Shown here piece by piece: positions 735 through 42,286 of a DNA stretch of 64,000 nucleotides. The position numbers and the translations under genes were made by a program. Source of the DNA: a virus; the IMG/VR virus record IMGVR_UViG_3300027749_000042; one strand, 5' to 3'. The stretch's first letter is position 1; each line of letters starts with the position of its first letter. The notes beneath the pieces are model-generated. The model worked only from the letters and a program-made list of their open reading frames with translations. It made no database searches and had not been told where the DNA came from.

Positions 735-897
735 TTCGAAGGGATGAGATCCTTTGCGTCACCACCTAACCTGAGTTCAAGCGGCCTTGGTGGATATAGG
801 CTAGGGCTGCCTGAAGTGTCCCTGTTTCTTGAACCGTCTTGTCTCAGAACCTGTTGCGCGAAAAGGCAACCGCTGGATGGCAGTAACCAGTACCGAA
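735..897 (+). ncRNA. Unknown structured RNA D
   Basis: Nested stems CTGAG/CTCAG, GTTCAAG/CTTGAAC, GTTGC/GCAAC, CTGG/CCAG; CCACC/GGTGG pseudoknot. Confidence 0.55.
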
Positions 898-901
898 ATT
901 T

Positions 902-976
902 GATCCTGTAAGCATCTGGTGAGGCTGACCCTCTGTCTAAGGGTTGAGGAGGGTTCGATTCCCTTCAGGATCGCCA
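902..976 (+). tRNA. tRNA-Asp(GTC)
   Basis: GATCCTG/CAGGATC acceptor, loop CTGTCTA, G73, CCA. Confidence 0.9.
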
Positions 977-982
977 AAGTTT

Positions 983-1059
983 GCCCCTGTAGTCCAACTG
1001 GTAGAGGCACCGGATTTAGGTTCCGGGTGGTGGGAGTTCGAATCTCTCCAGGGGCACCA
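983..1059 (+). tRNA. tRNA-Leu(TAG), short variable arm
   Basis: CCGGA-TTTAGGT-TCCGG arm, A73, CCA. Confidence 0.9.
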
Positions 1060-1074
1060 ATCTAAGGATATATT

Positions 1075-1533
1075 ATGCAAAAGATGATCGTGCTTGACAA
1101 TGTGTTTGATCCTGCTATAGTAGAGCAGTTGAAAGCGTTTGATTATGGTCCGCCAATGCCACAGCGTTGGTACGATTACGGCGTTAGCGCATTGCATGAA
1201 AAGATCCTTGAAATCGCGAAGGAACATTTTGATCTATCGCAGACAACTGGTTATGAAATGTGGGTCAATCAAAAAGCCGTTGGTTGGCATTTTGACCATG
1301 ATGAATACATATATAAGCGAACGCAGGAACTGATATTTCCTGCTGTGAGCATCGTGTACTATGCACACATTGAAAACATGCAAGGTGGCGATTTCACGTC
1401 CGAGAGTTTTCGATGCACACCTAAGACAAATAGATTGGTTATGTTCTCTTCGGACATTTACCATGCTGTGTATGATTACACAGGCACACGATTTGCAATT
1501 AGTATGAATCCGTGGAATAACAGGCCCGTATAG
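1075..1533 (+). CDS. 2OG-Fe(II) oxygenase
   Basis: HxD (WHFD)...H...R motifs, DSBH-like pattern; stop lies inside the next tRNA. Confidence 0.8.
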   Translation: MQKMIVLDNVFDPAIVEQLKAFDYGPPMPQRWYDYGVSALHEKILEIAKEHFDLSQTTGYEMWVNQKAVGWHFDHDEYIYKRTQELIFPAVSIVYYAHIENMQGGDFTSESFRCTPKTNRLVMFSSDIYHAVYDYTGTRFAISMNPWNNRPV

Positions 1534-1600
1534 TCCAATTGGAAGAGGCGTCGGTTTCAAACTCCGAATGTTGTAGGTTCGAGTCCTACTATGGGCACCA
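1524..1600 (+). tRNA. tRNA-Leu(CAA), short variable arm
   Basis: GCCCGTA/TATGGGC acceptor, loop TTCAAAC, CCA. Confidence 0.85.
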
Positions 1601-1615
1601 ATTTAAAGGTATATC

Positions 1616-2212
1616 ATGCAGAAATTCAATTTGTTTTCAACACCAGTAGCAATTTTTGATTTGCCGGATTTTGAAAGAATCAATAAAATTATTTTAGATG
1701 GCAATCTCAAAGGTGTTGCTGAGCAAAATGGTTCAGATACTTTTGAGTATTCACAAGACAGAAATATCTGGAGTCATAGATATAATGAAGGTATAAATAT
1801 TCTTCATGATTTCTTTTTGGAATCTGCTGCCAAATATGCAACTGAATTTTTTGAGATGGAATATAAACCAGATTTCTTTAGACATGCTAGAGGGTGGATT
1901 AATTTTTGTAAATATGGGCAAGAATATAGATTTCATAGTCATCGAATGACTACGATTGCAGCCACTTATTATGTGGATGTAGGAGATAAAGGTGGGATCA
2001 TTCGACTACTCGATCCTAGATCGACGTTAGGTTGGATTAGTCTTAATCCTGAACATTATAATGTGTTCAACTATAAGCCAAAAGCTGGACAGATGATTAT
2101 GTTTCCTGGGTGGCTAGTTCATCAAGTGTCGCACAATCAAACCGATAAAGATCGTGTGGCAGTGACAACAAATATGAATCTTATTCAGAAGCACTATGCT
2201 ACCTTAGTGTAA
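1616..2212 (+). CDS. 2OG-Fe(II) oxygenase (TIGR02466-like)
   Basis: LFSTP N-terminus, WIN...HSH...YY, DPR, FPGWLxH, RVAVTTN. Confidence 0.85.
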   Translation: MQKFNLFSTPVAIFDLPDFERINKIILDGNLKGVAEQNGSDTFEYSQDRNIWSHRYNEGINILHDFFLESAAKYATEFFEMEYKPDFFRHARGWINFCKYGQEYRFHSHRMTTIAATYYVDVGDKGGIIRLLDPRSTLGWISLNPEHYNVFNYKPKAGQMIMFPGWLVHQVSHNQTDKDRVAVTTNMNLIQKHYATLV

Positions 2213-2273
2213 TTGGTAAGCACCCGGTGTTGTGGACGCCGGAGTTCAAGTTCGAATCTTGGAGGTAGTGCCA
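2198..2273 (+). tRNA. tRNA-His(GTG)
   Basis: CGGTG-TTGTGGA-CGCCG arm, TTCGAAT T-loop, CCA; no encoded G-1. Confidence 0.92.
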
Positions 2274-2274
2274 A

Positions 2275-2282
2275 TATAAATA
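2275..2282 (+). promoter_or_regulatory. T4-type late promoter motif
   Basis: TATAAATA. Confidence 0.5.
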
Positions 2283-2357
2283 GATCCTAGAGCATGACTG
2301 GCTATGCGGGTGTCTCTAAAACATCGAATACGGGTTCAAGTCCCGTTAGGATCACCA
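2283..2357 (+). tRNA. Amber suppressor tRNA (anticodon CUA)
   Basis: Perfect GATCCTA/TAGGATC acceptor, GCAT/ATGC D-stem, GGTGT-CTCTAAA-ACATC arm, ACGGG-TTCAAGT-CCCGT T-arm, ACCA. Confidence 0.88.
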
Positions 2358-2425
2358 ACTGATAATGGAGTAATAACATGAAGGTATTTTTTCTGTAGGT
2401 TTTTCGTCCCCCATGAATTTTCTTA

Positions 2426-2454
2426 TTGACTTTGAATAATCACTATCGTATAAT
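2426..2454 (+). promoter_or_regulatory. sigma70-type early promoter
   Basis: TTGACT-17nt-TATAAT upstream of ORF 2479. Confidence 0.75.
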
Positions 2455-2478
2455 GTTAACATCAATAAGGAAACCAAC

Positions 2479-2895
2479 ATGTCTATCAAGTTAAAGATCA
2501 AGTCTAAACATCTCGCATTGGAAGCTGGCGTCATTCGGTTCGAGGAACAGAAACTCAAGCGCCAGATTGAATGGCTCAAGACACACCAAAAGGACGAGAC
2601 TAAAGTTCGTTTTATGTGGAAGTCATTGAATAGCCATCGTCGTTTTGATGTTCGCAATGAAGCTCGTGCTACTCTTCTCGCTCGCGCATACATAGAAGGG
2701 CGAATTTACAAAACGGTAGAACATTGTCGTAAAGATAATGGTACGTTCAAGACGTATATTTTGCCTCGTATTGTTTCAATGGTCATCAAATATGAGCATG
2801 GAAAAATTGAAAAGTTTATGAAGCCAGACGATGTAAAAGCCGTGCGCGACGAGGTCGTAGCGTGGCTTGAAGGTCAAGTCTGGGTTCAAGTATAA
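2479..2895 (+). CDS. Hypothetical basic phage protein
   Basis: 138-aa ORF, AAGGA RBS, own promoter. Confidence 0.7.
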   Translation: MSIKLKIKSKHLALEAGVIRFEEQKLKRQIEWLKTHQKDETKVRFMWKSLNSHRRFDVRNEARATLLARAYIEGRIYKTVEHCRKDNGTFKTYILPRIVSMVIKYEHGKIEKFMKPDDVKAVRDEVVAWLEGQVWVQV

Positions 2896-2902
2896 AAGAA
2901 TT

Positions 2903-2996
2903 GGGTGAGTTGATGCTATGGCGTGTGCATCTCCGGACTGTAAATCCGGTCCCTATGTGGTAAACAATGTAGGTTCGACTCCTACCTCACCCACCA
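2903..2996 (+). tRNA. tRNA-Tyr(GTA)
   Basis: Loop CTGTAAA, long variable arm, CCA. Confidence 0.92.
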
Positions 2997-3000
2997 CTAC

Positions 3001-3081
3001 CATCGGATCGTGTGCCCACCGTGCGGCAGCCGATGTAAAACAAACCCGTGGCGCTTATGGAGCCAATTAACGGTGGGAACA
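3001..3081 (+). ncRNA. Unknown pseudoknotted RNA E
   Basis: CATCGG/CCGATG stem whose loop pairs 11/12 bp with 3070-3081. Confidence 0.55.
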
Positions 3082-3085
3082 GTTT

Positions 3086-3161
3086 GCCGATGTAGCTCAG
3101 TTGGTAGAGCGCACCCTTCATACGGGTATTGTCACTGGTTCAAGTCCAGTTTTCGGCACCA
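3086..3161 (+). tRNA. tRNA-Met(CAT), elongator type (or Ile2)
   Basis: Cloverleaf, loop TTCATAC, CCA. Confidence 0.9.
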
Positions 3162-3166
3162 ATTGA

Positions 3167-3241
3167 AGCAGAGTGGAGCAGTAGTAGCTCGTTTGGTTCA
3201 TACCCAAAAGGTCGGCGGTGCAATTCCGTCCTCTGCATCCA
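3167..3241 (+). tRNA. tRNA-Met(CAT), initiator-like
   Basis: A1xA72 mismatch, GTGGAGCAG D-arm, loop TTCATAC, variant T-loop TGCAATT. Confidence 0.8.
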
Positions 3242-3349
3242 ATATAGTCTCGCAGCGTTTGGATTACCTAGGGCTTGAAATCCAAGGTTCACGGTCACAA
3301 AGCGAGTGTGGTGGTACTGCATGGTAAGGTTCGCTCTTACCAACTATAT
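3242..3349 (+). ncRNA. tRNA-like structured RNA F
   Basis: ATATAGT/ACTATAT closing helix stacked on TGGTAAG-GTTCGCT-CTTACCA hairpin; CTCGC/GCGAG and TTGGATT/AATCCAA arm. Confidence 0.55.
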
Positions 3350-3353
3350 ACAT

Positions 3354-3429
3354 GCCGTCTAAGCTAATCTAGTGAAAGCGCCTGCCTGAAGAGCTGGAGA
3401 GCTTGGAGCGTAACCAAGAGACGGCACCA
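3354..3429 (+). tRNA. tRNA-Phe(GAA), non-canonical D/T loops
   Basis: GCCGTCT/AGACGGC acceptor, loop CTGAAGA, T-loop AGCGTAA, ACCA. Confidence 0.8.
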
Positions 3430-3430
3430 T

Positions 3431-3438
3431 TATAAATA
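3431..3438 (+). promoter_or_regulatory. T4-type late promoter
   Basis: TATAAATA upstream of the HNH gene with GGAGG RBS. Confidence 0.7.
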
Positions 3439-3460
3439 CATCCGTAACAACGGAGGTATA

Positions 3461-3850
3461 ATGCCAAGAAAACCAAAAGATTTATATAAAGAAGATATAC
3501 GCGATAAACATGTTGGTCATGGAGTTGCTCGATCACCACATTGGTCAACTGTACAGCATAATCATTTAAAACTTGAACCAGCTTGTGCTGCATGTGGCGG
3601 CGGTTTGAATCTTAATGTTCACCATAAAAAACCATTTCACCTATTCCCAGAATTAGAATTAGAACCAACAAACCTAATCACGCTATGCATGGATGGCGAT
3701 AAAGATTGCCATATCAAGTTGGGTCATGGTGGCAATTTCAAAGCATATAATCCAGACGTAGAGGAACATGTGGCTATTGTAAATGCAGACTTCACACTTC
3801 TAGAAGAATATGCGAAGAAAGCAAAAAAGAATAGGTTGCTAGTCGGATGA
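3461..3850 (+). CDS. HNH endonuclease family protein
   Basis: CxxC...VHH...NLITLC...CH...GH. Confidence 0.85.
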   Translation: MPRKPKDLYKEDIRDKHVGHGVARSPHWSTVQHNHLKLEPACAACGGGLNLNVHHKKPFHLFPELELEPTNLITLCMDGDKDCHIKLGHGGNFKAYNPDVEEHVAIVNADFTLLEEYAKKAKKNRLLVG

Positions 3851-4494
3851 AACGCCTCGCTCTTTTTCAACACCATCCTGAATGTTCCAGGCAATGTTGT
3901 GATGGAATTGAGCGAGCATTATCTCCGCAATATGAAGTGAAGCTGTTTACGGTTCAAGATAATCTTGATGAGGTGCTAAATGATGTGGATGGAATTGTTT
4001 TCCCTGGCGGCATTGGCGACAGTGACAGTTATCACGATTTCTTTACACGTTCTAAAGCTAACAAAGTCGCAGCGTTTCTTGATAGAGGTGGTAGGTATAT
4101 CGGCATTTGCATGGGTGCTTATTGGGCTGGTTCTAGATATTTTGACATCCTTGATAAAGTAGATGCGGTTCAATATATCAAGCGGCCGACTGCTGAGATA
4201 CGCCGAAGTTATGGCACGGTCGCTGATATTGAATGGCTTGGTCAAAAAGAAAAGATGTTCTTCTATGACGGTTGTGTCTTTACAGGCACTGGAAAATATG
4301 ATACTATTGCCAAATATGCTAACGATGAACCGATGGCAATCATTCAAGGCAATCTTGGTTTGATTGGTTGCCATCCTGAGAGCGAGGAATTTTGGTATGA
4401 GAGCCCTTATCAGTATCTTGATGGATATTGGCACGATGGTAAACATCACCAGTTGCTACTAGATTTTGTGAATAGACTTTGGAGAGTTGGCTGA
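3847..4494 (+). CDS. Class I glutamine-amidotransferase-like (BPL_N-type) protein
   Basis: FPGG, YIGICMGAY nucleophile elbow, HPE triad. Confidence 0.8.
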   Translation: MKRLALFQHHPECSRQCCDGIERALSPQYEVKLFTVQDNLDEVLNDVDGIVFPGGIGDSDSYHDFFTRSKANKVAAFLDRGGRYIGICMGAYWAGSRYFDILDKVDAVQYIKRPTAEIRRSYGTVADIEWLGQKEKMFFYDGCVFTGTGKYDTIAKYANDEPMAIIQGNLGLIGCHPESEEFWYESPYQYLDGYWHDGKHHQLLLDFVNRLWRVG

Positions 4495-4570
4495 GTGGCC
4501 TAAAGCACTCGTTTGCTAAATGAGCGAACCCTAACCGGTTCCGTGAGTTCGAATCTCACACTCTCCGCCA
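4481..4570 (+). tRNA. tRNA-Ser(GCT)
   Basis: GGAGAGT/ACTCTCC, loop TTGCTAA, long variable arm, GCCA. Confidence 0.95.
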
Positions 4571-4578
4571 TATAAATA
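4571..4578 (+). promoter_or_regulatory. T4-type late promoter
   Basis: TATAAATA 8 nt upstream of tRNA-Trp. Confidence 0.6.
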
Positions 4579-4586
4579 GACTAAAT

Positions 4587-4660
4587 ATCGGTGAAGTGTT
4601 ACGGTAGCACATCAGTCTCCAAAACTGAGGGCCTGGGTTCAACTCCTAGCACCGGTGCCA
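4587..4660 (+). tRNA. tRNA-Trp(CCA)
   Basis: TCAGT-CTCCAAA-ACTGA arm, GCCA. Confidence 0.93.
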
Positions 4661-4668
4661 GAATGAAC

Positions 4669-4820
4669 CGAGAAACTTTAGTTGGAACAAATCGACTGCG
4701 GGTGGTTCCGCTACGATCCGAAAAGTTCTCGCCTCATGGGTTCTCACTAACCAGAGAATCCTTCGTTTGAGGGAGCTGTAAAGGGGCAGCAGGCAAGCGT
4801 AGGAGATACGCACCCTTGCT
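4669..4820 (+). ncRNA. Unknown multi-hairpin RNA G
   Basis: CGAGAAACTTT/AAAGTTCTCG domain plus four tandem hairpins; TGGTT/AACCA loop complementarity. Confidence 0.5.
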
Positions 4821-4826
4821 TATAAC

Positions 4827-4918
4827 GGAAGTGTGGCAGAGTCTGGTTTATTGCTCTAGTCTTGAAAACTAGCGTGCCTGAAAGGGTACCGTGGGTTCGA
4901 ATCCTACCGCTTCCGCCA
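4827..4918 (+). tRNA. tRNA-Ser(TGA)
   Basis: CTAGT-CTTGAAA-ACTAG arm, long variable arm, GCCA. Confidence 0.95.
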
Positions 4919-4976
4919 TTTCTGTTTACTATGTTGTATTGATGACAGGTTTGTTTCATGCAACATAGGAGCAAAA

Positions 4977-6722
4977 ATGAAAAGATTACTAGCAGCCGCT
5001 GCAATATTGTGTGCGGCAATTACAGCACCATATGCACAAACGCTACCATCAGGTTCGCTTGGTACGGTAACAGGCAACACAAGAAACACATGGCAACCAT
5101 TTACCTACACGTTTACTCCATCAACAACTGGAGCAAACTTTGTAGGTTTTGCCTTTCGCGAAGATCCAGCATTCTGGACATTTGACAATGTTACTTTGAC
5201 CGCTGCTGGTTCAACCACAAATCTTCTAACTAACGGAACATTCACTACAGGTGGTCGTTTTAGCGTAACAACCAACAATGGTGTTTCTAACATGCAAGCC
5301 CCAACAAACTGGGGAGTTTGGTATCAAAATGGAACATATCCTGCTGCCGCTGGCACTTGGACTGATATTGGGGGTGCTCATGGTGGCGTATGGTATGACG
5401 GCGCTGTTGGGTCGTTTGATGGCATTTACCAAGGTGTGGCTCTTACAGCTGGCACCACTTACACTATTGCTTTTGAAGTCTCTGGGAATAACACTTCTAA
5501 CGGTAGTTCTATTCAGCTTGGCGTATATGGCGGCGCTTGCTCAACTGTAAGCATCTCACCTGACCAGTGTACAATTCCATCATCTGTTGGCTTTACCACA
5601 TTAGCAACTCCATCACAAGGAGCAGCTGCAGGTAATCCAACACCACCACCTGTCACTCTTGTTAGTACAGCCAACGCACCATCAACAGCAACATCCTCAA
5701 CCGCATATGGAACATCTGTTGTTGCTTATAATGTTGCTAATGCGAGGGTAAATTCTGGTCAGTGGATTGCGATAACACGCACCACAACGCCAGTGACAAC
5801 GCGCCCATATACCATTACCACAGTGACAACACCACATGCGGTAGAAACATATAGCGATGGCACTACTGTCACAACTAACGGAACACCATTGACAACAACG
5901 CAAAATGGTGCTACTATAACAATCGGTCAACCAGTAGCGCAGACTGCATCTGTGTCTGGCGTATCTCTAAAGGATTCAATTGCGGTTCGTAATTTCAATC
6001 CATTCTTGGTCGATGCTCTATCAACTAAAGATGGTGCATGGGCTACGCCTAGCTTGGGTTATGCGAAAACAAGCGGTTCATTCCGTATCAGTGGGCTATC
6101 ATTTGGCTATCAGACAACCGTTGAGAATAACACAGCTGGTATTGCTGGCAATATATCCAAGATTGAAAACAGTGGCTTCGTCGGTTCATCTTCTAGCTCG
6201 GACGCATACGCGGGTACAGCTTACTTTCTAACAAAGCAGGAAGATGTTTGGATCAAGGGTGCAGTTGGTTATAGTGCCGCTGAATATGCCACGACAACAT
6301 CGTTGCCAGTGTTTGCACTTGTGAACAGTAGCACCGTGAAGACAAGAAACTACTACGGCGATATCACATTCTATTCCGCTAAGGAGTTTGAAGGATTCAG
6401 ACCACTTGTTGGTGTTGTGCTAAACAAGTCTGAGGTGGTATCGCAGGCCGAAGGTGGTAGTGCATTGCTATCCACATTGCCTGGTGTTGGTTCTTCATTC
6501 GAAGCAAGACCATATGTTGGTATCAGATATGACATTGATGATGTTTTCGGTATTGAAACAAGAGTGACACGTTCCAGAGATTTTGGTACTGTCGCGCAGA
6601 TACGCGCAAGCGCGAAGATTGAAATCGTAAAGGACGCATATATAGAACTAACAGCAGGAGCTGATAAAGGTTCTAATTACACCGGCGCAGTTGGTATGAT
6701 TGGATTGAAAATCAACTTCTAA
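4977..6722 (+). CDS. Autotransporter-like outer-membrane protein
   Basis: Sec signal, W/T/G-rich beta passenger, Pro/Thr linker, C-terminal amphipathic beta strands ending LKINF. Confidence 0.7.
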   Translation: MKRLLAAAAILCAAITAPYAQTLPSGSLGTVTGNTRNTWQPFTYTFTPSTTGANFVGFAFREDPAFWTFDNVTLTAAGSTTNLLTNGTFTTGGRFSVTTNNGVSNMQAPTNWGVWYQNGTYPAAAGTWTDIGGAHGGVWYDGAVGSFDGIYQGVALTAGTTYTIAFEVSGNNTSNGSSIQLGVYGGACSTVSISPDQCTIPSSVGFTTLATPSQGAAAGNPTPPPVTLVSTANAPSTATSSTAYGTSVVAYNVANARVNSGQWIAITRTTTPVTTRPYTITTVTTPHAVETYSDGTTVTTNGTPLTTTQNGATITIGQPVAQTASVSGVSLKDSIAVRNFNPFLVDALSTKDGAWATPSLGYAKTSGSFRISGLSFGYQTTVENNTAGIAGNISKIENSGFVGSSSSSDAYAGTAYFLTKQEDVWIKGAVGYSAAEYATTTSLPVFALVNSSTVKTRNYYGDITFYSAKEFEGFRPLVGVVLNKSEVVSQAEGGSALLSTLPGVGSSFEARPYVGIRYDIDDVFGIETRVTRSRDFGTVAQIRASAKIEIVKDAYIELTAGADKGSNYTGAVGMIGLKINF

Positions 6723-6729
6723 AATATGA

Positions 6730-7236: not shown

Positions 7237-8421
7237 TCAATATAGCTTGTAACCATAAACGTCTTCGAATTTTTCATTTCGAATGGTGTCAAGTGTCTTC
7301 GTGAATGAGATGAAAAGGTCTTCTCTTTCAGGTTTCGTTTCAAGCATATGAGCCTTGATAGCAAGAAGCTCCTTCTTGAGAACATCAAAATTTGACGGGT
7401 GTAGAATTTCTATCGACTTATCAATCTCATTCATAACTCTTGCGCGAAGATCATTGTTTAGGTGTACCCAGTGAAGAGCATACGGTAGAGTTACCGAATA
7501 GCATCTTGTCTGCAAGATTGGGTTGATATCATAAATCTTCATCAAAAACTCAGCTAGATTTGCAAAGTCTAAAAGATTATACGGGCTGATAGCAATATTA
7601 TAATGCAAATTCCATAATGGAAGCTTTGAAAATTTTATGAAGTTTTCTTCAACCACATCCCATTTCGTACCTTTTCTATTGTACTCAGCAGCTTTCCCAA
7701 CACCGTCGATGCTCATTACGATTCTAGCTTTTTCAAATTGCATTAACCTATCTATGAAAAGTGGATTCCACACACTGCAATTGGTAAACATTTCCAATAC
7801 CACTTTTTTATGATATCCATTTTCAATCATGTGATCCATAAAATCATAGTACTGCTTTATCAGCAATGGTTCTCCACCTGTAAAACATACAGTTTTGACA
7901 TTATCTAATGACAGCTTTTTTAGTTCGTCGAAATTGCTTTCGGACGTGTTTGTGAAATCTCTGAATTTAAATTGTGTGTAGTTTAAAAGGACTGGGTATT
8001 CTTCTACTTCTTTTTGCCATTCAGAACTTGAATCTGCATTACACATTCTGCATTTAAAATTGCAAAGATTGCTCGCTCGCAATTCGATACGAACGATTTC
8101 TGTAGGATCTTCTGCGTTAAAATCTGATGATTGTCTATCTTCTCCTAGTCCATAACCATAGTTCCCAACACCCATCATTCTAATTTCACTTTGTCTTGAA
8201 CTTTTAAGCCCACGCTGTTCTTTTTTCCAACAGACTTCGCAGTTCTTCGGAACTTTTCCTTCTTTCAATTCGCTTTTGATGTTTGCAAGCCAATCGCTTT
8301 GCAAATAATCAATCGGTGACATTGTTTGTTTTTCCAAACTTACATGACACGGCGACGCAGTATTTTCATGGTAGTACAATCCTGTCCAGGGAGCGGGGCA
8401 AAAAAAATCATCGCTTGACAT
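7237..8421 (-). CDS. Radical SAM protein with N-terminal twitch/SPASM-like Cys region
   Basis: CNFKCRMC, FTGGEPL, TN, SIDG; N-terminal FCPAPW...CxxC; start re-called at MSSDD. Confidence 0.9.
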   Translation of the reverse strand: MSSDDFFCPAPWTGLYYHENTASPCHVSLEKQTMSPIDYLQSDWLANIKSELKEGKVPKNCEVCWKKEQRGLKSSRQSEIRMMGVGNYGYGLGEDRQSSDFNAEDPTEIVRIELRASNLCNFKCRMCNADSSSEWQKEVEEYPVLLNYTQFKFRDFTNTSESNFDELKKLSLDNVKTVCFTGGEPLLIKQYYDFMDHMIENGYHKKVVLEMFTNCSVWNPLFIDRLMQFEKARIVMSIDGVGKAAEYNRKGTKWDVVEENFIKFSKLPLWNLHYNIAISPYNLLDFANLAEFLMKIYDINPILQTRCYSVTLPYALHWVHLNNDLRARVMNEIDKSIEILHPSNFDVLKKELLAIKAHMLETKPEREDLFISFTKTLDTIRNEKFEDVYGYKLY

Positions 8422-8443
8422 AAATAATCTCCGAGTGTATAAT
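8415..8443 (+). promoter_or_regulatory. sigma70 promoter (perfect consensus)
   Basis: TTGACA-17nt-TATAAT upstream of tRNA-Leu(TAA). Confidence 0.85.
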
Positions 8444-8465
8444 CCTATTCTATATAGTGAGTAAT

Positions 8466-8541
8466 GCCCATGTAGGCCAATGGCAGAGTCAGGGGACTTA
8501 AAATCTCCACAGTGTCGGTTCGAGTCCGACCATGGGCACCA
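8466..8541 (+). tRNA. tRNA-Leu(TAA), short variable arm
   Basis: Loop CTTAAAA, ACCA. Confidence 0.9.
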
Positions 8542-8566
8542 ACTAAATACCAGCATGAGAAAACCA

Positions 8567-9031
8567 ATGAACATTAATGAAGTCCGTGAATTTATCAGCA
8601 ACACCTCAGCAACTACAAAAATCTATATCGGTGCAGATTCGAAACGCTACTGTCGCAAAGACGGTAAGTGGATTGCCGACTACACGGTAGCGGTTGTTGT
8701 TCACTATGATGGCAACAAGGGCTGTAAGGTATTCGGTGATGTGACATCGGAGTTTGATTACGATAAGCGCCATGATCGGCCATCATTCCGTTTGATGAAT
8801 GAAGTCTATCGTGCAGCGAACATGTACCTAGAACTGTATGAAGCAATCGGCGACAGGCATGTGGAAGTCCACCTCGATATCAATCCCGATGAAATGCATG
8901 GATCAAGCTGCGTTATTCAGCAAGCGACTGGATACATTCGTGGGCTTTGTGGGTTCACACCAAAGGTAAAGCCAGAAGCATTTGCTGCATCATACGCAGC
9001 CGATAGATTGAAGGAGATTCTTGCCACATGA
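8567..9031 (+). CDS. RNase H-like YkuK/DUF458 family protein
   Basis: IYIGADS, RLMNEV, EVHLDIN, KP.AFAASYAAD. Confidence 0.85.
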   Translation: MNINEVREFISNTSATTKIYIGADSKRYCRKDGKWIADYTVAVVVHYDGNKGCKVFGDVTSEFDYDKRHDRPSFRLMNEVYRAANMYLELYEAIGDRHVEVHLDINPDEMHGSSCVIQQATGYIRGLCGFTPKVKPEAFAASYAADRLKEILAT

Positions 9032-9621
9032 GTGTTACAATTGATGATTTTGTTTTGGAATATAATAACTTCCTGACACCTGAAGAATGTATGGGATACA
9101 TTGATTGTTATCATCGGTATGAATCAATGGGGCTCACAATTAATCGCCAAGCCTCTGGTGAACCGTCGATTAGAAAAGCTGATGACCAGATGTTTGTCAC
9201 TTCGCTTTTAGCCACAAATGAATTGAATATCTCTGACCTAGAACCGTTTCACTATTTTGTGAAAAAGTTTTGGGATCAAGCGTATCCGATTTATCGCCAG
9301 AAATATGGTGTGTTGACAGATATAAGTCAACACACCGTTCGCCTCTTGAAAATTCAGAAGACGCATAAGAGCGAAGGCTATCATGTTTGGCACTGCGAAG
9401 ATGGTGACCCAAATGCAATGCGTAGATTAATGACATTCATTCTTTACCTGAACAATATTCCTGATGGTGGTGAGACCGAGTTCCTCTATTACTCGAAACG
9501 ATATAAGGCTGAGGCTGGTAAGCTCATTCTATGGCCAGCAGGATATACTCACACGCATCGTGGTAACCCACCACTCAGCAATACCAAATATATACTAACT
9601 GGATGGGTTGAACTGTCCTAA
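9028..9621 (+). CDS. 2OG-Fe(II) oxygenase (prolyl-hydroxylase-like)
   Basis: GYHVWHCE, LYLN..GGETEF, WPAGYTHTHRGNPP, KYILTGW. Confidence 0.9.
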   Translation: MSVTIDDFVLEYNNFLTPEECMGYIDCYHRYESMGLTINRQASGEPSIRKADDQMFVTSLLATNELNISDLEPFHYFVKKFWDQAYPIYRQKYGVLTDISQHTVRLLKIQKTHKSEGYHVWHCEDGDPNAMRRLMTFILYLNNIPDGGETEFLYYSKRYKAEAGKLILWPAGYTHTHRGNPPLSNTKYILTGWVELS

Positions 9622-41580: not shown

Positions 41581-41676
41581 GTGAGCATTTTACCTCGTTC
41601 ATGTTTATGTACTGGGATTGCCCACGCTATATCTGTATCAACAATTGGTCAGAGTCATCAGCCAGAAATTATCTAC

Positions 41677-41710
41677 TTGACAAACACCCTCTTTCCATGT
41701 ATTATAAATA
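41677..41710 (+). promoter_or_regulatory. Overlapping early and late promoter for tmRNA
   Basis: TTGACA-17nt-TATTAT overlapping TATAAATA. Confidence 0.75.
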
Positions 41711-41713
41711 ATA

Positions 41714-42034
41714 CGCTAAGGTTGTTGAGACGTTCGGAATAAACCATTTGGACTCGGGGGCAGTACCCGACGCCTCCACCATGGATACACTAATAAAGAC
41801 GATCCTTTATAAGAGTTCTACCGCCAAACAAGTTCTAAAGCATGAAGAGATAAATGCTCCAGCTTGTTGTGTAGATTAGTGTATCTTTGATGGGGGCGAT
41901 ATAGGTTCGACAGATAGTAGTAAAGGCACGAGTAGACCAAGGCGCGTTTTAGATGCTAACGATAATACACCTATCTCTTACGCTCTAGCAGCGTAAGTAT
42001 GCGTTCGGGGGGAACGTGGAAACAGAATCCCCCC
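41714..42034 (+). ncRNA. ssrA: Circularly permuted (two-piece) tmRNA
   Basis: Acceptor piece ...GGGGGCAGTACCCGACGCCTCCACCA (ends 41781) precedes GGGGGCG (41892); G3:U70; tag ANDNTPISYALAA* at 41955-41996. Confidence 0.92.
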
Positions 42035-42061
42035 ACTAACACTATTAGAGAGGTGAAAATT

Positions 42062-42286
42062 ATGAACGACGATAAGATGCTCCGCTTCAATATTCTTCAG
42101 ATGGCTCAGTCCATGTGTGACCAAGAGTTTCTCTTCGCGAGCGAGCGCACAGGCGAGACACAGACTAAATTTCCCACAGCACAAGACGTTATCAAGAAGG
42201 CCGAAACGCTTATGACGTTTATCAATGCACCTGCACCGATCGGTGAGCAGGTTCGTGGTTCGGCTGAGCTTCTAAACGAGGCTTGA
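42062..42286 (+). CDS. Hypothetical protein
   Basis: LR..IL.MA...FPT..DVI.KA motif; GAGG RBS. Confidence 0.7.
   Translation: MNDDKMLRFNILQMAQSMCDQEFLFASERTGETQTKFPTAQDVIKKAETLMTFINAPAPIGEQVRGSAELLNEA

Follow-up and report, generated by a model that had tools for sequence, protein, structure and literature searches.

The window analysed is the whole 64,000-nucleotide (nt) stretch, given as one strand, of the IMG/VR virus record IMGVR_UViG_3300027749_000042, which stems from a T4-like myophage of freshwater origin and of the pelagimyophage/Melnitz type. The part studied here, positions 1075-4570, belongs to its tRNA array. Three open reading frames (ORFs) embedded in the array on the same strand as the tRNAs, ORF1, ORF2 and ORF3, have their stop codon inside the tRNA gene that follows, and such overlaps recur in related phages. 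The reading we favour, and consider probable, is that of a compact, tRNA-punctuated operon, in which stop loss driven by homing and small indels is tolerated, RNase P processing probably damps expression and general trans-translation clears the by-products. The three genes, their lengths in amino acids (aa) and the tRNAs in which they end are:

1075..1533 (+), ORF1, 152 aa, 2-oxoglutarate (2OG)-Fe(II) oxygenase; TAG at 1531-1533, i.e. nt 8-10 of tRNA-Leu(CAA)
1524..1600 (+), tRNA-Leu(CAA), ARAGORN and Rfam RF00005; first 10 nt in common with ORF1
1616..2212 (+), ORF2, 198 aa, 2OG-Fe(II) oxygenase (PF13759, phrog_81); TAA at 2210-2212, i.e. nt 13-15 of tRNA-His
2198..2273 (+), tRNA-His(GUG), ARAGORN and Rfam RF00005; first 15 nt in common with ORF2
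3847..4494 (+), ORF3, 215 aa, class-I glutamine-amidotransferase-like/BPL_N protein; TGA at 4492-4494, i.e. nt 12-14 of tRNA-Ser(GCU)
4481..4570 (+), tRNA-Ser(GCU), ARAGORN and Rfam RF00005; first 14 nt in common with ORF3

The location of the three stops within the downstream tRNAs, claimed in an original prediction made from the sequence, was found to be exact when the ORF list, the translations and the sequence itself were compared. Position 1 of the Rfam model RF00005 falls at 1524, 2198 and 4481 (53.4, 50.7 and 54.6 bits), identical to the 5' ends called by ARAGORN. The two programs give slightly different tRNA sets (only Rfam detects the tRNA at 3354-3426, and its list lacks three tRNAs called by ARAGORN), which could be taken to mean that mis-called tRNA boundaries, pseudo-tRNAs, spurious ORFs or assembly errors have created the overlaps. 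This explanation is effectively refuted, and we give it hardly any credence: two independent methods place the same +1 for the three tRNAs at 50-55 bits, all three ORFs score at or above the Pfam cut-offs, the junctions recur in independent metagenomes at 77-99% identity, and the ratios of non-synonymous to synonymous substitution rates (dN/dS) are far below 1.

ORF1 matches 2OG-FeII_Oxy_3 (PF13640) with 28.4 bits (cut-off 27), and ORF2 matches 2OG-FeII_Oxy_5 (PF13759) with 62.5 bits (cut-off 27) and phrog_81 at 1.6e-31. By profile match, both are assigned to the 2OG-Fe(II) oxygenase superfamily. ORF3, with matches to BPL_N (PF09825; 48.2 bits, cut-off 24.2) and GATase (PF00117; 27.8 bits, cut-off 22.8), is a predicted class-I glutamine-amidotransferase-like enzyme; its translation shows GICMG (nucleophile-elbow Cys) and CHPE (HPE-type His/Glu). 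All three are judged from their sequences to be real genes. The Pfam matches end before the last 5-11 residues of ORF1 and ORF2 and before the last ~36 residues of ORF3, thus the tRNA-encoded residues (RPV, ATLV and WRVG for ORF1, ORF2 and ORF3, respectively) are non-conserved tails outside the domain. At the 5' side, the start codons of ORF1 and ORF2 follow the CCA of the preceding tRNA by about 15 nt, a spacer that holds a Shine-Dalgarno sequence, and ORFs beginning 14-18 nt past the upstream tRNA are found in the window and at many ORF3 loci. In the window, ORF3 is the exception to this tRNA-spacer start, having a gene directly upstream. The two features concerned are:

983..1059 (+), tRNA-Leu(UAG), ARAGORN and Rfam; its CCA lies 15 nt before the ORF1 start, with the Shine-Dalgarno sequence AAGGA between
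3461..3850 (+), HNH endonuclease gene, from profile matches; its stop overlaps the ORF3 start (ATGA)

For comparison, 86 related IMG/VR loci were collected and the stop codon of each homolog was located relative to the next tRNA. The overlaps of ORF1 and ORF2 are retained in relatives of 97-99% identity. Two 88%-identical relatives (L003 and L004) lack ORF1; their ORF2 still enters tRNA-His and ends with TAG at nt 8 instead of nt 13, owing to a 2-nt indel just upstream of this tRNA. Identical junctions recur across independent metagenomes, at 77-99% identity. The family of ORF3 comprises at least 599 phage loci. Outside arrays, homologs carry a stop of their own 2-5 codons past a conserved FVxxL, and array copies end in Ser(GCU) at nt 12 or nt 21, Glu(CUC) at nt 21, Thr(UGU) at nt 12, His at nt 8 (two clades), Ala(UGC) at nt 8 or Leu(UAG) at nt 48; a few array-embedded copies leave gaps of 7-218 nt before the tRNA. 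According to a protein tree, which is a quick IQ-TREE tree only, copies reading into a tRNA are spread over three clades or more, and different tRNAs serve as partner within a clade. Close relatives also swap an overlap for a small gap (L008 compared with L011, L024 compared with L070).

Further families show the same arrangement. A radical SAM gene in L001 takes TAG at nt 8 of tRNA-Leu(UAG) as its stop, another 2OG oxygenase gene has its stop at nt 19 of tRNA-Gly, two HNH genes (L070 and L076) reach nt 22 of tRNA-Pro and nt 55 of tRNA-Leu(UAA), and the stop of a glycosyltransferase gene has a 1-nt overlap with tRNA-Arg. Altogether, the related IMG/VR phages yielded 16 different junctions of a gene with a tRNA, and the genes represent at least five unrelated protein families. 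The original prediction would have fallen if homologs mostly stopped upstream of the tRNA; for array-embedded homologs this is not the case, and the overlap is conserved. GenBank phages gave no match to window positions 900-5000 with megablast and none to ORF3 with tblastn; from the latter result, no isolate among them carries ORF3. ORF2 finds in GenBank phages just 23-29% identical oxygenases of cyano- and pelagimyophages, none of which adjoins a tRNA among the matches listed.

To compare strands, all ORFs of ≥ 120 aa ending near a tRNA were surveyed in the window and the 86 related loci, irrespective of protein family. On the same strand, 21 of 55 ORFs end inside the tRNA and 13 of 55 end 0-10 nt upstream, compared to 0 of 9 antisense ORFs ending inside the tRNA at the mirror position. 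The overlap pattern exceeds chance. Cargo genes with a stop of their own show a sharp peak at exactly 7 nt before tRNA +1 (e.g., window 2893-2902 and 6720-6729), which suggests a preferred leader length. For ORF1, ORF2 and ORF3, dN/dS is 0.07-0.18 among lineages which all retain the overlap and whose synonymous divergence (dS) ranges from 0.24 to ~2. Hence, the arrangement is old and the proteins are functional; the overlapped genes are under strong purifying selection.

The supply of stop codons by tRNAs was determined as well. Of 347 distinct tRNAs, 52% have TAG at nt 8-10, and 49% of all tRNA-by-frame combinations contain a stop within 24 nt, compared to 35% for random sequence. The idea that the 5' end of any tRNA provides stops in all three frames is, with these values, only partly true. 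Of the junctions, 14/16 end within 22 nt of the tRNA start (about 0.002 in a binomial calculated by hand against 49%, for junctions which are not strictly independent); since short read-ins exceed the supply to this extent, short tRNA-encoded tails appear to be under selection. TAG is a rare stop in the window (5/75 long ORFs), yet among tRNA-borne stops it is the most frequent; ORF1 and the majority of read-in ORFs end with it.

A terminator has no space in such an overlap, and predictions show none between the cargo genes and tRNAs; each gene must therefore share one transcript with its downstream tRNA. The motif TATAAATA, the T4-type late-promoter consensus, has 11 matches in the window against 2.8 expected (1792, 2275, 3431, 4571, 13866, 32166, 39790/39794, 41703, 47463 and 55688). 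Those at 2275 and 4571 fall in tRNA spacers, that at 41703 lies at a transfer-messenger RNA (tmRNA) gene described below, and one precedes the unit containing ORF3:

3431..3438 (+), late-promoter-like motif TATAAATA, upstream of the HNH-ORF3-tRNA-Ser unit

Because gene and tRNA share a transcript, a cut by RNase P at +1 would leave the upstream mRNA without a stop codon. A non-stop mRNA after tRNA maturation is plausible from the geometry and this co-transcription.

Under the favoured reading, accessory genes are placed between tRNAs as modules of the form tRNA with CCA, ~15 nt with a Shine-Dalgarno sequence, ORF and next tRNA. The cargo of such modules includes 2OG-Fe(II) oxygenases and the amidotransferase-like enzyme in the window, and radical SAM, glycosyltransferase and HNH endonuclease genes in relatives. 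Native stop and spacer may have been lost repeatedly through cassette insertion and small indels, and homing endonucleases which target tRNA genes probably assist in this, as in the case of T4 SegB. The loss would be tolerated because a few acceptor-stem-encoded residues can stand in for a C-terminal tail that is not conserved, and a stop would soon be reached in the tRNA, most often U8-A9-G10, i.e. TAG. On the primary transcript, translation would terminate normally inside the still unfolded tRNA. Once the tRNA has folded and RNase P has cut at +1, the upstream mRNA would be stop-less and short-lived, and ribosomes remaining on it would need rescue, presumably by general trans-translation using host SmpB with either host or phage tmRNA. 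The net effect would likely be damped expression of cargo in a strongly transcribed tRNA array.

It is possible, though we think it unlikely, that the overlap merely saves space. In this case, ribosomes would finish while the precursor is nascent or still unprocessed, RNase P would act only on transcripts out of translation and non-stop translation would be negligible. Such neutral compaction agrees with the very compact arrays (tRNA-tRNA spacers of 0-16 nt throughout), with tails set by the tRNA sequence and not conserved, and with the free switching between overlap and small gap in the close relatives named above. Furthermore, a terminating ribosome would be expected to unfold the acceptor stem and D arm and thereby to block recognition by RNase P. 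However, the spacing of ribosomes lets the tRNA fold, and RNase P separates co-transcripts in E. coli, for instance secG-leuU. Since the tRNA can fold between ribosomes and RNase P is efficient, some non-stop translation seems hard to avoid. In addition, the bias to short read-ins (14/16 against 49%) shows selection at least on the protein tail.

Several points weigh against the tRNA-punctuated operon with damped expression. Many cargo genes of the same arrays retain their own stop 0-11 nt upstream of the tRNA, with the peak at 7 nt, so that the overlap is not required, and it is dispensable in the relatives G011 (complete) and G005 (94% complete). These own-stop genes and overlap-free relatives fit neutrality as well as regulation. 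RNase P cleavage and its kinetics, the fraction of non-stop ribosomes and messages, and the damping itself are what we infer, and the part ascribed to homing endonucleases in making the junctions is likewise derived from adjacency and from T4. Finally, the related loci were gathered via ORF3 homologs; the counts are consequently enriched for the ORF3 family, and the junctions are not strictly independent.

The window contains a tmRNA gene, as the original prediction had stated for 41.7-42.0 kb:

41673..42087 (+), permuted two-piece tmRNA of the alphaproteobacterial type, ARAGORN and Rfam; tag ANDNTPISYALAA, with TATAAATA at 41703

It scores 109.8 bits with RF01849 (alpha_tmRNA, cut-off 50) and 91.3 bits with RF04321, and ARAGORN calls it as permuted. 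The gene is intact with its parts in permuted order, and the tag frame has the canonical degron end ...YALAA. It had been proposed that the overlaps are a programmed device: tRNA maturation would produce non-stop mRNAs, the phage tmRNA would rescue the ribosomes and tag the products, and the lifetime of the cargo proteins would be tied to tRNA processing. Some observations agree with this proposal. The overlap is old, recurrent and kept in genes under purifying selection, the tmRNA is intact and carries a degron tag, late-promoter-like TATAAATA is present at both the tmRNA and the HNH-ORF3 unit, and E. coli arfA is an established case of a regulated non-stop mRNA.

We nevertheless regard the programmed device as improbable, because the tmRNA does not follow the overlaps. 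A tmRNA of the alpha type was found in 9/10 large relatives whatever the context of ORF3, namely in 5/5 with ORF3 overlaps and in 4/5 with ORF3 away from a tRNA. It is present without any read-in overlap in G011, a complete genome with terminal repeats and 24 tRNAs, and in the 94% complete G005; G003 has the tmRNA and one overlap. Conversely, phage T5 has overlaps without a tmRNA: a search of T5 and T4 for tmRNA found none, the best match reaching 12.9 bits against a cut-off of 47. SmpB (PF01668) had no match in five relatives, three of them ≥ 90% complete, from which it follows that the phage must use SmpB of the host. To our knowledge, every bacterial host has its own tmRNA. The claimed link between overlaps and phage tmRNA is thus not borne out. 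Coupling of protein lifetime to tRNA processing fares no better, as purifying selection (dN/dS 0.07-0.18) implies that enough functional, undegraded protein is made, and equivalent genes of the same array stop ordinarily. Moreover, other roles have been proposed for the Melnitz-type phage tmRNA, i.e. maintaining hijacked translation or tagging host proteins (PMC9004378). In our assessment of the genomes compared, the phage tmRNA is best described as a trait of the lineage which does not track the overlaps and is no dedicated partner of ORF1, ORF2 or ORF3; its existence need not be explained by tRNA-overlapping genes.

In a more elaborate form of the programmed device, the cargo would be stop-less deliberately, RNase P would act as a timer on each message and a phage tmRNA expressed from its late promoter would boost the rescue of non-stop ribosomes. 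We hold this version to be similarly improbable. If true, it would constitute a virus-encoded expression throttle on metabolic genes, coupled to tRNA processing and reaching beyond homing endonucleases.

The two-piece tmRNA is itself not new. Melnitz-like phages and pelagimyophages, which are aquatic and T4-like, have been described to carry an alphaproteobacterial-type permuted ssrA, 'common but not defining', together with curli csgF/G (PMC9004378). The same paper considers no link between this tmRNA and tRNA-overlapping genes (PMC9004378), and the link is unsupported in the phage of the window, too. A literature search for phage overlaps of coding sequences (CDS) with tRNAs in combination with non-stop mRNA or tmRNA found nothing direct.

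The closest precedent for the geometry is T5. In its curated record (NC_005859), hegD, hegC and T5.069 overlap tRNA-Gln2, tRNA-Ser2 and tRNA-Asn. As in the window, hegD (T5.061), hegC (T5.064) and T5.069 are ORFs of a tRNA array on the same strand; they encode 172-194 aa and their stops lie at tRNA nt 21, 12 and 22, and neighbouring ORFs of the T5 array end 0-20 nt upstream of a tRNA. Of these T5 genes, two encode homing endonucleases and T5.069 is hypothetical, whereas the three genes of the window encode metabolic-type enzymes. T5 also belongs to an unrelated family (Demerecviridae), has an enterobacterial host and is without tmRNA, in contrast to the phage of the window.

Loss of the stop by tRNA maturation has been suggested before. 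For T4 segB, which is co-transcribed with tRNAs, maturation of tRNA-Arg was proposed to cut between the last sense codon and the stop (PMC2330249). The proposed outcome, given as a discussion point in 2008, was a destabilised mRNA, incomplete protein and damped expression (PMC2330249, Brok-Volchanskaya et al.), and the same processing idea was cited for the T5 endonucleases F-TflI/II/IV (PMC2330249). In the RefSeq annotation, the stop of segB lies 5 nt before tRNA-Arg; hence, there is no overlap in T4, and no tmRNA is involved. SegB has been shown to recognise a conserved element of tRNA genes (PMC2330249), which would explain the entry of cargo into tRNA arrays. For homing endonucleases of T4 and T5, stop loss by tRNA maturation is accordingly an already published hypothesis; new here are the extension to metabolic cargo, the number of junctions and the evidence for long-term purifying selection.

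Two non-phage systems are also comparable. In E. coli arfA, RNase III cuts a hairpin and thereby removes the stop, and the fate of the product hinges on trans-translation. The likeness is that the stop is lost to an endonuclease cut in a structured 3' region, as would happen to the genes of the window. The truncated ArfA product is itself a rescue factor in a feedback loop with tmRNA, whereas the window genes show no sign of such feedback. In mitochondrial tRNA punctuation, the mRNAs of polycistronic transcripts are flanked by tRNAs, tRNA excision defines the mRNA ends, and stops are often incomplete or shared. Mitochondria complete U or UA stops by polyadenylation, whereas in the window genes the whole stop is inside the tRNA and would be lost.

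Annotation pipelines and guidelines usually forbid overlaps between CDS and tRNAs, whereby such genes are truncated or dropped. With at least five unrelated families having tRNA-borne stops under strong purifying selection, the genes are to be considered real and should be annotated. The lineage furthermore provides many natural replicates, i.e. the same gene with or without overlap and with different tRNA partners, and is for this reason a good system for the T4/T5 proposal that tRNA maturation throttles co-transcribed genes.

The following further features of the window were recorded:

2283..2357 (+), tRNA with a CUA (amber-reading) anticodon, ARAGORN and Rfam
2479..2895 (+), comparator cargo ORF, 138 aa, without family match; own TAA 7 nt before tRNA-Tyr (2903)
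3354..3426 (+), tRNA, Phe(GAA)-like by reading of the anticodon loop, Rfam only (41.6 bits); just 5' of the HNH gene
4977..6722 (+), comparator cargo ORF, 581 aa; own TAA 7 nt before tRNA-Gln (6730)
9028..9621 (+), comparator cargo ORF, third 2OG-Fe(II) oxygenase (phrog_61); own TAA 11 nt before tRNA-Met (9633)

According to ARAGORN, 20 tRNAs are located within the first 9.7 kb of the window and one further tRNA at 42.3 kb. All tRNAs of the array have their 3' CCA encoded. No other tRNA of the window is more than 71% identical to the CUA-anticodon tRNA, and relatives also carry a UCA (opal-reading) tRNA, labelled 'SeC' by ARAGORN (L003 947-1024, L004 789-866, L085 200-277). If TAG were read through, ORF1 would gain 41 residues, extending to nt 1657. 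Recoding of TAG as a genome-wide code was rejected, since ORFs of ≥ 90 aa under table 11 cover 86% of the window.

The HNH gene upstream of ORF3 is variably present among relatives. The Phe(GAA)-like tRNA preceding it at 3354-3426 has a mismatch in the anticodon stem. In the relative L007, which is on the same contig as L004, ARAGORN calls a tRNA-Phe 15 nt before ORF3, and in the window they are separated by the HNH gene; this could be the scar of a homing site. The radical SAM gene of L001 (320 aa, 1395-2367) sits exactly between tRNA-Asp and tRNA-Leu(UAG), where the window has a 6-nt spacer (977-982). The last ~5 nt before tRNA-Leu(UAG) are common to both genomes, which are 97-99% identical, and the difference looks like a recent gain or loss of a cassette.

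In the relative G003 (L104:4480-4599:-), an ORF of 40 codons continues in frame into tRNA-Arg(UCU) and, oddly, stays open until just past the CCA; its site corresponds to ~1.6 kb upstream of position 1 of the window. This ORF matched nothing in Pfam, NCBIfam or PDB sequences at E-values up to 10; ArfA homology was likewise not detectable in this tRNA-fused ORF. A putative ORF of 55 aa in the window (744-911), without family match, likewise stops at nt 8-10 of a tRNA, in this case tRNA-Asp (902).

Inside the plus-strand array, a radical SAM gene (PF04055) lies on the minus strand at 7237-8604 (-). Its longest ORF crosses tRNA-Leu(UAA) (8466-8541, +) antisense, and for this reason the gene probably begins further in. 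The same tRNA is preceded by a perfect TTGACA-17-TATAAT promoter at 8415-8443 (+). In tRNA-His, T is at position -1 (2197) and no G-1 is encoded, and reading of the sequence gives a G1-U72 pair. The lack of an encoded G-1 and the encoded CCA ends are consistent with an alphaproteobacterial host, without amounting to proof of one.

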